DNA of 64,000 bases from Candidatus Sulfotelmatobacter sp. GTDB lineage: Bacteria; Acidobacteriota; Terriglobia; Terriglobales; Acidobacteriaceae. The position numbers and the translations under genes are program-made. How positions within the stretch are numbered: position 1 is the stretch's first letter; each line of letters opens with the position of its first letter. The stretch spans positions 11,708 to 75,707 of the forward strand of contig JBEKUD010000006.1 of assembly GCA_049515395.1 (NCBI GenBank), given 5' to 3'. Below are positions 23,880 to 26,084 of the stretch, in pieces. The notes under the pieces are model-generated. The model was not told the DNA's origin, searched no databases, and saw only the letters and a program-made list of their open reading frames with translations.

Positions 23880-26084
23880 TTAGTCTCCCGCCACCGGCTC
23901 GGCAACTTCCGGCTTCGCAGCGTGCGCTCCGTTGCCATTCCCATTGGACTTCCCCAGAGCCCCCAGAGGAATGAATCCGTTCTCCGCCACCGCTGGCTTC
24001 TCCTTTAGCACCACCTCGCGATAAAGCGCCGCCATCCGCGCGTTGTAAGCCTCATCGTTTTTCTGCGGACCGCGATGCTCACCCTGTGCCTCAATCTCCT
24101 CGCCAGTAGCCGGAAGCGGGGAGCTGGAAACAGCCGCCTTCGCGTCCCTTGCTCGCTTCTTTTCCTCACGCGCAGTCTTTGCGATCCCTAGCTTATCCAG
24201 ATCGCGCTGCAGTTCGTTCGTCACGATATTTTCGCGGAGCAGCAGTGAATGCGTTTCATCTTCCATTTTCACTTTTTTCCCGCCCGCGAAAATCTCGTGC
24301 CGCCCGTGCTCCTCGTACCACTTGGTGAGAGTGGCCGTCATGTGCATCTTCTCGATGATGTTTCTCCAGCCCACGCCGGTGTTGTATGCGCAAAATGAAA
24401 TCTCGCCTTCCTGCGTCGCGTAGGGAATGATGCATTGTTCCGTCCGCCGGAAGTCGTAGTTGAATAGATCCTGAAACCACATCCCCGCGATGAAGAGGAA
24501 GTTCCAGCGATCCTGCCGCCGCTTCATCACATCGTCCACCGTGCGCTCCGGACCAACCTTCCCGTAATTCTTTCCCGTCGCGTTAAAGTTCTTGTCAAAC
24601 TTCCGCAACAAATCGATCAACTTGAAATGCGTCGGCGCCTGAAATGGATCGTAGTTCTTCATCAGACACAGCGCCATTCCCACGACAGTGAGAAACTTCC
24701 CGCGCGCTGCATCATTTACCTTAGCAATATCTTTAGCAAGCTGATCCCCTGCCAGAAACGCGGTAACCGGCACAGCTTCCTTCGTTTCCTTGTCAATCAT
24801 CACCGCCATGCCGGTCCCGCAATTGGGGTGACAACCGCAGGAGAGCTGGCCCCAGTCGTTTTTCACGTCGTTGGCATGCATCAAGTCGGCCCAGTCGCTG
24901 AAAGTGCCCATGAATGAAATCGGGAACCAGTCGCGGCTTGGTTCGCCCAGGCCGGTTTGATTTTTTACGTCGTGGGCCAGGTGGGACAGCGTGTAGCGTT
25001 GAGCCTGACGGCGGTCGTCGGTTACGGCTTCGTCGCGGCCGGTGAAGCTTACGGGTTGGAAACTCAGGAAGCTGATCGTCTTCGGATTGTCCAGGGCGAA
25101 CTTGATGATGCGCCCGACCTGTTCGTTGTTGATGCCGTTTACGATCGTGACTACCGGAACGATTTCTACTCCGGCCTTGTGCAGATTTTCAATTGCCTTT
25201 AATTTCACGTCGAACAGGTTGCCGACCATGCGGTGAGCGTTGGCGGCGTTGCCGATGCCGTCGAACTGCAAATACGCGTAGCGCATACCGGCTTCGACGG
25301 CTTGCTGACAGAACTCAAAACTTTTTGCGAATTCGATTCCGTTCGTTGCCGCCTGCACGGAGTTATATCCGACTTTGCGGGCGTAGCGAACCGCGTCTAA
25401 GAAGTACGGCGACAACGTCGGCTCACCACCGGAGAACTGCACGCTCATCTGACGGCGCGGCTTGATCGTGATTGCGTTGTCGAGCATGGTCTTAATTTCT
25501 TCCCACTGCAGTTCGTGGACGAAGCCCACTTGATTCGCGTCCATGAAGCAGGGGTCGCACATCATATTGCAGCGGTTGGTGAGATCGATGGTGAGGACGG
25601 AACCGCGTCCATATTTCACGGTGGACGAGCCATGATGATGCAGCTTCTCGTCATTGTGGGCGAGGATGTCGCGGCCGGGGAAGACGTCTTCGAGATGCTT
25701 CGAGAAATCGGTGTCGATCGACATCACGTCTTCGAAGTGCCCGTGCTTCGGGCAATCTTTCACCATCAGAATCTTGCCGTCGCGCTCGACGATGGTGGCT
25801 TTGATCTCGCCGATTTTTTCGTTCATCAAAACTTCGTGCGGAAGTTTGCCGTCGAGAATCTGCTGGCGGATTTCGGGAACACACTTCGGGCACAGGGAAT
25901 CGGTGGAGCGGGGCCAGCCGAGCGGTGGCTTGGATTTTTCGTAGGACTTGAGCAGAGGCTTGTCGGACCATTTGGGAGTGGGCGAGGGATTTTGCTTGAT
26001 CTGATTGAAGCGGTCGAAGACGACCCAAGCGCCTTTGGCGGCGACGGTGACTGCTTTTTCAACGTACTTGATCGGCTTGCGCAT
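23880..26084 (-). CDS. Radical-SAM enzyme with Tes / GDGT-MAS (tetraether lipid synthase)-like architecture
   Basis: 734 aa. N-terminal metal knuckles: SLCPKC ... DCPKHGH. Canonical CX3CX2C: LTNRCNMMCDPCF. SAM-binding-like QFSGGEPT. Extra Cys motifs: LSCGCHPNCG, EQCIIPYATQEGEISFCAYNTGVGWR. About 130 aa of charged, low-complexity tail. Confidence 0.6.
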   Translation of the reverse strand: MRKPIKYVEKAVTVAAKGAWVVFDRFNQIKQNPSPTPKWSDKPLLKSYEKSKPPLGWPRSTDSLCPKCVPEIRQQILDGKLPHEVLMNEKIGEIKATIVERDGKILMVKDCPKHGHFEDVMSIDTDFSKHLEDVFPGRDILAHNDEKLHHHGSSTVKYGRGSVLTIDLTNRCNMMCDPCFMDANQVGFVHELQWEEIKTMLDNAITIKPRRQMSVQFSGGEPTLSPYFLDAVRYARKVGYNSVQAATNGIEFAKSFEFCQQAVEAGMRYAYLQFDGIGNAANAHRMVGNLFDVKLKAIENLHKAGVEIVPVVTIVNGINNEQVGRIIKFALDNPKTISFLSFQPVSFTGRDEAVTDDRRQAQRYTLSHLAHDVKNQTGLGEPSRDWFPISFMGTFSDWADLMHANDVKNDWGQLSCGCHPNCGTGMAVMIDKETKEAVPVTAFLAGDQLAKDIAKVNDAARGKFLTVVGMALCLMKNYDPFQAPTHFKLIDLLRKFDKNFNATGKNYGKVGPERTVDDVMKRRQDRWNFLFIAGMWFQDLFNYDFRRTEQCIIPYATQEGEISFCAYNTGVGWRNIIEKMHMTATLTKWYEEHGRHEIFAGGKKVKMEDETHSLLLRENIVTNELQRDLDKLGIAKTAREEKKRARDAKAAVSSSPLPATGEEIEAQGEHRGPQKNDEAYNARMAALYREVVLKEKPAVAENGFIPLGALGKSNGNGNGAHAAKPEVAEPVAGD

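Follow-up and report, generated by a model that had tools for sequence, protein, structure and literature searches.

The brGDGTs (branched glycerol dialkyl glycerol tetraethers), like their iso-diabolic-acid precursors, are the basis of palaeotemperature and pH proxies in wide use. To our knowledge, the enzyme that couples the lipid tails in Acidobacteria, the best-documented producers, has yet to be demonstrated. Here we ask whether such an enzyme is encoded at positions 23880..26084 (minus strand) of a 64-kb stretch of Candidatus Sulfotelmatobacter DNA (contig JBEKUD010000006.1), hereafter the window, meaning the whole stretch that was analysed. A first-pass annotation, made from the letters and a list of reading frames, had described the gene as a stand-alone homologue of the archaeal tetraether lipid synthase Tes (GDGT-MAS) and as a candidate synthase of bacterial membrane-spanning lipids. 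We find that its product is very probably a lipid-directed radical S-adenosylmethionine (SAM) enzyme of the Tes superfamily, and we favour, with moderate confidence, tail-to-tail coupling that gives membrane-spanning lipids as its function. Judged by its predicted ligands and its model score, it is not a canonical Tes, because the triad of the N-terminal [4Fe-4S] cluster ([4Fe-4S]N) is absent and the equivalog cut-off is missed.

The 734-amino-acid (aa) open reading frame (ORF) reported earlier at 23880..26084 stands, and its strand, left unstated there, is minus. It is complete, running from an ATG start to a TAA stop, and is the single ORF in that interval. Each motif of the earlier list was located on the minus strand: CPKC at residues 65-68 (nt 25881-25892), CPKHGH at 111-116 (nt 25737-25754), CNMMCDPC at 172-179 (nt 25548-25571), (S)CGCHPNCG at 416-423 (nt 24816-24839) and C551-x13-C565 inside CIIPYATQEGEISFCAYN (nt 24381-24434). 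The charged tail, put at about 130 aa, measures 134 aa (residues 601-734) and holds 21 K/R and 22 D/E. Pfam places Radical_SAM (PF04055) at residues 168-330 (E 1.4e-17) and Zn_ribbon_HMPTM (PF23545, 'HMPTM N-terminal zinc ribbon') at residues 58-122 (E 4e-13). The protein database holds more than 8000 homologues, the top 120 of which are 86-92% identical and 710-763 aa long. C65, C68, C111, H114, C172, C176, C179, C422, C551 and C565 are invariant in 80 of 80 orthologues, as are M535 and Y555, while C416 and C418 are retained in 79 of 80. Given these Pfam domains, the homologues and the cysteines that are invariant across orthologues, we read the ORF as a genuine gene and not a chance ORF.

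The top NCBIfam model is tetraether lipid synthase Tes (NF045702), with 317.1 bits (E 1.8e-94) over model positions 2-483 of 486, a score that does not reach the equivalog cut-off of 450 bits. In line with this, relatives are called only 'radical SAM protein' by NCBI. The second model, the TrsS radical SAM (seleno)protein (NF045646), matches residues 92-569 with 206.7 bits against a cut-off of 490, well under the Tes score, and the remaining matches (71 bits or less), which include NirJ, AhbC, MoaA and SPASM maturases, cover the radical-SAM core only. Among solved structures, the sole strong match by sequence is GDGT-MAS of Methanocaldococcus jannaschii (MJ0619; 7TOL/7TOM), with E 1.7e-63 over residues 93-590. 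Profile-profile alignment (HHalign) of the query's clade with an archaeal-type profile of eleven relatives gives a probability of 100 and E 1e-132 over 493 columns. An AlphaFold2 model built on a 93-sequence alignment (mean predicted local distance difference test score (pLDDT) 82.4, predicted template modelling (TM) score 0.83) reproduces the four-domain GDGT-MAS fold, with lower confidence (pLDDT 63-72) in the region that replaces the N-terminal cluster. Searched against the PDB with Foldseek, the model matches 7TOM (E 6e-33) and 7TOL (E 1.8e-32) at target-normalised TM scores of 0.83-0.84 over 556-568 columns; the next match is MoaA (E 1.7e-8, TM 0.46), to the core only. Homology to Tes/GDGT-MAS is thus borne out by sequence, profile and predicted fold. 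The best matches fall in Tes (TM 0.84 for 7TOL versus 0.46 for MoaA) and not in unrelated radical-SAM subfamilies, the outcome that the first-pass annotation had named as counting against its reading.

The GDGT-MAS structure contains four metal centres (PMC9433317; PMC13459092), which provide a residue-level yardstick for the query. The rubredoxin-like iron of MJ0619 is bound by C9x2C12...C33x2H36 (PMC9433317), and the same pattern of three Cys and one His is found in the predicted rubredoxin-like mononuclear-iron domain at residues 61-122 (25719..25904, minus; PF23545), as C65-x2-C68...C111-x2-H114. It is kept in 359 of 359 clade members. The radical-SAM core (residues 163-350; 25035..25598, minus; PF04055) carries the CNMMCDPC triad, C172-NMM-C176-DP-C179 (CX3CX2C), likewise in 359 of 359. 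Its SAM-binding loop FQPVSFTGR (residues 342-350; 25035-25061, minus) is identical to that of MJ0619, in which Q268, S271 and R275 are the SAM-loop residues (PMC9433317), and is conserved in relatives with and without the N-terminal cluster.

The C-terminal auxiliary cluster of MJ0619 ([4Fe-4S]C) is held by three Cys and a labile Met439 and bears the substrate-sulfur intermediate; Tyr459 is strictly conserved in GDGT-MAS, and Escherichia coli ester phospholipids were found bound in its pocket (PMC9433317). By alignment to 7TOL, residues 351-600 (24285..25034, minus) would form the corresponding auxiliary-cluster and lipid-pocket domain, with C422, C551 and C565 as the three Cys ligands, M535 as the equivalent of Met439 and Y555 as that of Tyr459. 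In the 93-sequence alignment, which spans 42-94% identity, C416, C418, H419, P420, C422, G423, M535, C551, Y555 and C565 are invariant. The same holds there for the rubredoxin-like ligands, the radical-SAM triad and the SAM loop, and the loop is invariant in the 80 orthologues too. A motif census found the C-terminal motifs in 359 of 359 members and CxCHxxC in about 349 of 359. The predicted ligands are thus those expected of a [4Fe-4S]C cluster.

The remaining centre is the one that is missing. In MJ0619 the N-terminal auxiliary [4Fe-4S] cluster is bound by C73, C77, C80 and a His (PMC9433317), and the archaeal triad CPxxCGxCxxH is present in MJ0619 and in 11 of 12 archaeal-type representatives (P0266 is degenerate there). 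At the same site the query has a Cys-free segment, LAHNDEKLHHHGSSTVKYGRGS (residues 141-162; 25599..25664, minus), and there is no Cys in the query between residues 111 and 172. In pairwise and multiple alignments the CPYDCGLCPNH of MJ0619 aligns to KLHHHGSSTVKYG, and in HHalign the first triad Cys falls in a 7-residue deletion while the other two face H151 and S154, so that pairwise, multiple and profile-profile alignments concur on the absence. The triad CxxxCxxC occurs in 0 of 359 full-length clade members. In its place stand the invariant D145, H151 and G152, with H149 conserved at about 90% (pLDDT 63-72). The layout proposed in the first-pass annotation therefore holds for the rubredoxin-like site and for the radical-SAM and C-terminal auxiliary clusters, and fails for the N-terminal [4Fe-4S] triad, which is absent clade-wide.

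Two terminal additions complete the protein. The N-terminal extension (residues 1-60; 25905..26084, minus) consists of a predicted amphipathic helix (residues 3-28; AlphaFold2 pLDDT 80-96, hydrophobic moment 0.51, net charge +3) followed by PKW...PLGWPR. It is absent from MJ0619, and W20, F23, N27, W39 and P53-R59 are invariant or nearly so in the clade. No transmembrane helix is predicted in the protein (peak 19-residue hydropathy 1.14). The charged C-terminal tail (residues 601-734; 23883..24284, minus), an addition of the query's subclade, is mostly predicted to be disordered, with helices at 638-654 and 678-692, pLDDT below 50 at 663-674 and 699-734, and patchy conservation (0.28-0.75 per 20-residue block). 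It has no Pfam match, is absent from archaeal Tes and is shorter in sister clades.

In a midpoint-rooted neighbour-joining tree, relatives split cleanly into a clade with the N-terminal cluster and a clade without it. The hallmarks of the latter are the N-terminal extension (W20, F23, N27, PKW, PLG[WF]PR), D-x3-H-x-HG at the site of the Cys triad, CxCHPxCG, GMWFQD, C[IV]IPY[AG]T and SFCAYN. All are present in the query and are common to the 93 aligned members and all 35 context loci (the CxCH regular expression missed two loci). Proteins of this clade range from 696 to 763 aa and share 28-34% identity with archaeal-type proteins; for the query against MJ0619 the identity is 31.7% (E 4e-67). 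Judging from these motifs, 'bacterial Tes homologues' appear to comprise two forms, an archaeal-type form with four metal centres and a divergent acidobacterial form without the N-terminal cluster. The divergent form is far more widespread than the archaeal-type one. No description of this distinction was found in the literature searched. The gene itself is one orthologue among thousands; the distinction of the two forms is the useful addition.

To place the clade taxonomically, we scanned a genome collection with one genome per species. At least 599 reference species have a match; each of the best 80 belongs to Acidobacteriota, within Terriglobales and Bryobacterales (subdivisions 1 and 3). 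Candidatus Sulfotelmatobacter metagenome-assembled genomes (MAGs) are 90-95% identical to the query protein, and the best 80 also include further Terriglobales such as Terracidiphilus, the isolate Acidipila rosea DSM 103428 (78%) and Bryobacterales orthologues (76-77%). The acidobacterial origin suggested by the first-pass annotation agrees with these relatives, the closest of which are Candidatus Sulfotelmatobacter and other Terriglobales MAGs with up to 95% identity. Across the two orders identity to the query is 74-95%, and the divergent Tes-like clade is widespread in Acidobacteriota. Iso-diabolic acid makes up 20-40% of fatty acids in subdivisions 1 and 3 (PMC13274423). Compared with the orthologue at L002, the closest related locus, the Tes-like protein is 95% identical, RibBA 93% and NuoC 82%, with neighbours overall at 75-93%; conservation of the Tes-like gene exceeds that of the housekeeping genes beside it, ribBA and nuoC.

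With Tes/GDGT-MAS (MJ0619; Methanosarcina acetivorans MA_1486; Methanococcus aeolicus Maeo_0574) the query shares the superfamily and fold (TM 0.84), the CxxC...CxxH site, the CX3CX2C cluster, FQPVSFTGR, the three C-cluster Cys and the equivalents of Met439 and Tyr459. It differs in its clade's 28-34% identity and position under the equivalog cut-off, in the missing [4Fe-4S]N triad (7-residue deletion plus H-x-HG-x-S), and in the extra N-terminal segment of about 60 aa, the C416/C418 pair and the 134-aa charged tail. Its presumed substrates are bacterial iso-C15 fatty-acyl or alkyl lipids, whereas those of archaeal Tes are phytanyl diethers. The archaeal-type bacterial Tes (Acid_5929, the homologue of Candidatus Koribacter versatilis, P0186 and P0192) belong to the same superfamily, also occur in Acidobacteria and have likewise been proposed as brGDGT or tetraester synthases, but with about 545 aa, 40-42% identity to MA_1486 and a retained CPxxCGxCxxH they differ from the query, which is about 30% identical to archaeal Tes.

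Solibacter usitatus has two homologues (Halamka et al.): Acid_5929 (545 aa, 40.2%, 1.4e-139) and Acid_2410 (714 aa, 30.1%, 4.2e-62). Zeng et al. 2022 reported two high-scoring homologues, one in Candidatus Koribacter versatilis (42%, 1e-149) and one in S. usitatus (40%, 1e-139), and a single weaker one (32%, 4e-61) in Edaphobacter aggregans, which makes iso-diabolic acid and brGDGT-Ia (PMC8941075). The values for E. aggregans (32%, 4e-61) and Acid_2410 (30.1%, 4e-62) look like the statistics of the query's clade, and the query resembles both Acid_2410 (Q025C7) and the E. aggregans homologue in length class and in similarity to archaeal Tes. On length, identity and E-value, the clade is probably orthologous to these two proteins. 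Acid_2410 is absent from the top 120 matches of a search with a Bryobacteraceae orthologue, all of which are metagenomic or MAG sequences. The query is of a divergent 'long' paralogue type and not the archaeal-type Tes that prompted the brGDGT discovery in S. usitatus. It is also distinct from Mss of Thermotoga maritima and Thermoanaerobacter ethanolicus, the sole enzyme of bacteria for which the coupling of fatty-acid tails into diabolic acids has been shown; Mss is a radical-SAM protein remotely related to Tes, with homologues in anaerobes and none found in Acidobacteria (PMC13159169), and its published description sets it apart as a different family.

The function we favour would be to link two iso-C15 chains of membrane lipids, acyl or alkyl, through their terminal carbons. 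The product would be a chain of the iso-diabolic-acid type, which forms the core of tetraesters and brGDGTs, the membrane-spanning lipids of bacteria. The individual steps have been shown only for the M. jannaschii GDGT-MAS (PMC9433317) and are transferred here by homology. Two SAM would be spent per C-C bond. The first, bound by the [4Fe-4S] cluster of CNMMCDPC, would be cleaved reductively to a 5'-deoxyadenosyl radical, which would strip a lipid tail, seated in the hydrophobic pocket, of a hydrogen at its terminal methyl. The substrate radical would then be parked as a C-S adduct on the C-terminal [4Fe-4S] cluster (C422, C551, C565 and the labile M535) until the tail of another lipid is activated by a second SAM, and the two carbons would be coupled. 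The surface rubredoxin-like iron (C65, C68, C111, H114) would probably be the only point of electron entry, with no N-terminal [4Fe-4S] relay, and the D-x3-H-x-HG segment and N-terminal extension would occupy the sequence place of the lost cluster. As far as alignment can tell, every residue known to matter for the coupling steps is retained, and it is the surface N-terminal cluster that is gone. The lipid-coupling idea itself is already published, and the gene is a known candidate: bacterial Tes homologues, acidobacterial ones included, were proposed as brGDGT makers in 2022 (Zeng et al., PMC8941075; also PMC10087280).

Several points weigh against tail-to-tail coupling. In the literature searched we found no deletion, expression or assay of any bacterial Tes homologue. 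A 2025 culture study, as cited in later papers, connects tetraesters and brGDGTs with Tes (Ger present or not) through co-occurrence only, and the 2025 evidence on K. versatilis and S. usitatus concerns genomes with the archaeal-type paralogue. Tes homologues were reported in only 3 of 14 iso-diabolic-acid-producing acidobacteria (Sahonero-Canavesi et al.), a count that may be too low because the cut-off used there, at least 30% identity, lies inside the clade's 28-34% range. S. usitatus has no detectable free iso-diabolic acid, which would bear on the query's clade, as this species seems to carry a paralogue of it. With only three of the four metallocofactors of Tes predicted and a score of 317 against 450 bits, chemistry or substrate may differ. 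The host belongs to an uncultured lineage, the orthology with Acid_2410 and the E. aggregans protein is argued from length, identity and E-value, and neither the window nor its 80 closest loci offer contextual support.

The strongest alternative, which we regard as possible if rather unlikely, is a lipid-tail radical-SAM enzyme with a reaction or lipid class other than canonical glycerolipid tail-to-tail coupling. It could form another C-C bond, such as a brGMGT-like chain bridge or the closure of a second link, or act on acyl chains bound to lipid A or lipopolysaccharide (LPS), in which case the main coupling would fall to the archaeal-type paralogue (Acid_5929/Koribacter type) or an unknown enzyme. 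The separate branching of the clade from all relatives with [4Fe-4S]N would fit this, as would the loss of one cofactor and the extra invariant Cys416, Cys418 and His419 beside the catalytic auxiliary cluster. On the other hand, conservation extends to the C-cluster ligands, the SAM loop and the residues equivalent to Met439 and Tyr459, as one would expect of the same chemistry, and the bridging enzymes of the Gms type lack a rubredoxin domain (PMC13459092). The strongest brGDGT and tetraester producers bear the archaeal-type paralogue, and both paralogues seem to occur in S. usitatus; yet E. aggregans, which apparently has only the query type, still makes iso-diabolic acid and brGDGT-Ia. That acidobacterial iso-diabolic acid comes free only when cells, or the residue left by extraction, are hydrolysed (PMC13274423) also speaks for this alternative.

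The genomic contexts of relatives bear on the same question. About 90 further loci from metagenomes and MAGs were inspected, giving about 170 loci in all. One sister clade (L081, L085-L087, L093-L125), about 50% identical to the query, has lpxD less than 4 kb away in about 25 of about 40 loci. These are bona fide lpxD genes (309-310 bits against a cut-off of 242.5; 10021-11097 in L081) and occur in two arrangements: 11 loci have lpxD immediately downstream and on the same strand, and 14 have it upstream and divergent, often together with lpxB. Some loci of this clade also carry a small methyltransferase of the PEMT/ICMT family directly upstream. In another sister clade (L082/L083, L090/L091, L092) the order is lpxC, DUF4390, an NtrY/NtrX-like two-component system and then the Tes-like gene, also with an Rrf2 regulator and a PHP-like protein before it; the Rrf2 regulator could link expression of the Tes-like gene to Fe-S or redox status. 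L090 and L091 have, in addition, a downstream cassette of B12-radical-SAM, GT2, acyl carrier protein and acyl-CoA-ligase genes. The lpx adjacency is what an enzyme of lipid A- or LPS-bound chains would lead one to expect, but it could be inherited synteny, and lpx genes are absent from 80 of 80 loci of the query's own clade.

Two further contexts recur in relatives. In six loci (L140, L145, L147, L150, L153, L160), whose Tes-like protein is 71-72% identical to the query, a compact, operon-like cluster is found. A gene for a B12-binding radical-SAM protein immediately precedes the Tes-like gene on the same strand and, in L147, overlaps its start codon, and one or two more such genes lie convergently downstream (clusters at 3362-8579 in L147 and 3343-10381 in L160). 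The downstream protein is closest to the hopanoid C-3 methylase HpnR (220 bits, below the cut-off); the others are generic class-B proteins. Enzymes of this class methylate and cyclise the tails of archaeal GDGTs, and brGDGTs bear C5/C6 methyls and rings. We regard the genes as candidate brGDGT or iso-diabolic-acid methylases or cyclases. Among the 80 closest loci, 8-9 have fatty-acyl-CoA-reductase-like genes 2-4 kb downstream. These loci, from Terriglobales MAGs (L016, L017, L018, L020, L023, L024 at 10350-13831, L025, L028, L038), encode a 742-787-aa HAD + NAD_binding_4 + Sterile fusion plus a second NAD_binding_4 gene, and the genes may be tied to fatty alcohol or ether-lipid synthesis. The recurring contexts differ, yet all indicate envelope-lipid chemistry.

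We consider a non-lipid role, such as pterin C-methylation, a TrsS-like function or the maturation of a peptide or cofactor, very unlikely. The first-pass remark that such proteins are mis-annotated holds for some sources, as JGI names many members 7,8-dihydro-6-hydroxymethylpterin dimethyltransferase (HMPTM). We reject that label, because the earlier functional assignment of MJ0619 could not be corroborated by Lloyd et al., who found the active site to be a hydrophobic lipid pocket (PMC9433317). TrsS does rank second among NCBIfam models, but with 207 bits it is far from both its cut-off and the Tes score. The weak matches to NirJ, AhbC, MoaA and SPASM maturases concern the core, and other radical-SAM folds also fit the core only (TM 0.46 or less); a SPASM peptide maturase, with matches of 51 bits or less, is rejected on the same grounds. 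No precursor-peptide or cofactor-pathway neighbours occur in the roughly 170 loci, where the recurring contexts are lipid-related. Least probable of all is a degenerate or accessory paralogue with little catalysis, kept for structure or regulation: one cluster is lost, the C-terminal tail is long and disordered, and distant branch members (P0137, P0148, P0182) lack one or more of the three C-terminal cluster Cys, but the catalytic ligands are invariant over 359 query-clade sequences, conservation exceeds that of ribBA and nuoC, and 74-95% identity is held over two orders.

The window's own gene content lends no support to tail coupling. Besides the Tes-like gene it encodes a giant DUF11/peptidase C25 protein, DAHP synthase, the nuo operon, a MerR regulator, ribBA directly downstream of the Tes-like gene, a CarboxypepD_reg/outer-membrane beta-barrel protein, SLT and HAD proteins, a Tad pilus locus, three GT87 glycosyltransferases, a SpoIIE phosphatase, a GH15 enzyme, a PstS-like protein, ppk1 and ppx. 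Annotation of all 64 kb turned up no lipid-pathway gene, and no neighbour family recurs in more than 10 of 80 loci, so the description of the gene as stand-alone, with no partner genes nearby, is upheld. The rest of the pathway (iso-C15 synthesis, ether formation and methylation) must be encoded elsewhere in the genome. Of the 80 related loci, the neighbourhood is common only to L002.

The gene may be transcribed on its own. A terminator-like hairpin lies between its stop codon and ribBA (23683..23706, minus; 9-bp stem with 7 GC pairs and a T-rich tail), and, as a consensus match only, suggests a monocistronic transcript. Upstream, a conserved region (26085..26381, minus), a putative promoter and 5' leader, is 86% identical to L002 within a single 2506-nt alignment (window 23882-26381), and the similarity stops at 26381. 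Blocks of it recur in other loci of the Candidatus Sulfotelmatobacter clade, and it includes an inverted repeat at 26213-26251, CCCAGGGAA...TTCCCGGGG with a loop of variable length, found in 10 of 75 loci. The repeat folds no better than shuffled sequences (z -1.3). The region has no Rfam match even at E ≤1, and a sigma-70 promoter scan upstream of the gene yielded no sites. The window as a whole has no tRNAs and no Rfam matches at gathering thresholds.

Variable segments lie to either side of the gene. About 5.1 kb of the window (26382-31498) has no counterpart in L002 and includes the gene for the 1298-aa CarboxypepD_reg/outer-membrane beta-barrel protein (27207-31103), and L002 has about 1.3 kb extra between the Tes-like gene and ribBA. 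Further along, a sign change in GC skew and the cumulative-skew minimum (about 28000-32000) coincide with a switch of the main coding strand and could reflect replication- or transcription-related strand bias. An 847-aa ORF (34134-36677, minus) without a significant Pfam domain (faint TonB_C, E 0.006) sits in the most GC-rich part of the window (63.8% versus about 57%). The three GT87 genes (440, 486 and 440 aa) are adjacent at 45174-50143 on alternating strands, with a 294-aa ORF between the first two, and in the giant protein (87-5318; 1743 aa) seven DUF11 repeats are joined by a peptidase C25 (gingipain-like) domain at the C terminus.

As the gene is already a published candidate, the window does not open the brGDGT-synthase question. 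The distinction of two forms shows which paralogues merit separate testing, and it offers a possible explanation for contradictory presence/absence surveys, as identities of 28-34% straddle the cut-off used. A bolder reading is that the clade without the N-terminal cluster, and not the archaeal-type Tes, is the general iso-diabolic-acid synthase of Acidobacteria, working in aerobes with a reduced cofactor set, and that in at least some lineages it acts on, or feeds, acyl chains anchored to lipid A or LPS. Taken jointly, we judge these proposals improbable. If true, they would explain the adjacency of lpxD, lpxB and lpxC in sister clades, why iso-diabolic acid is non-solvent-extractable and seen only after hydrolysis, and why surveys at 30% identity score most producers as lacking a Tes homologue. 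Whichever lipid it acts on, the clade is a natural variant for asking what part the N-terminal cluster plays in Tes catalysis, a question left open by the structural paper.

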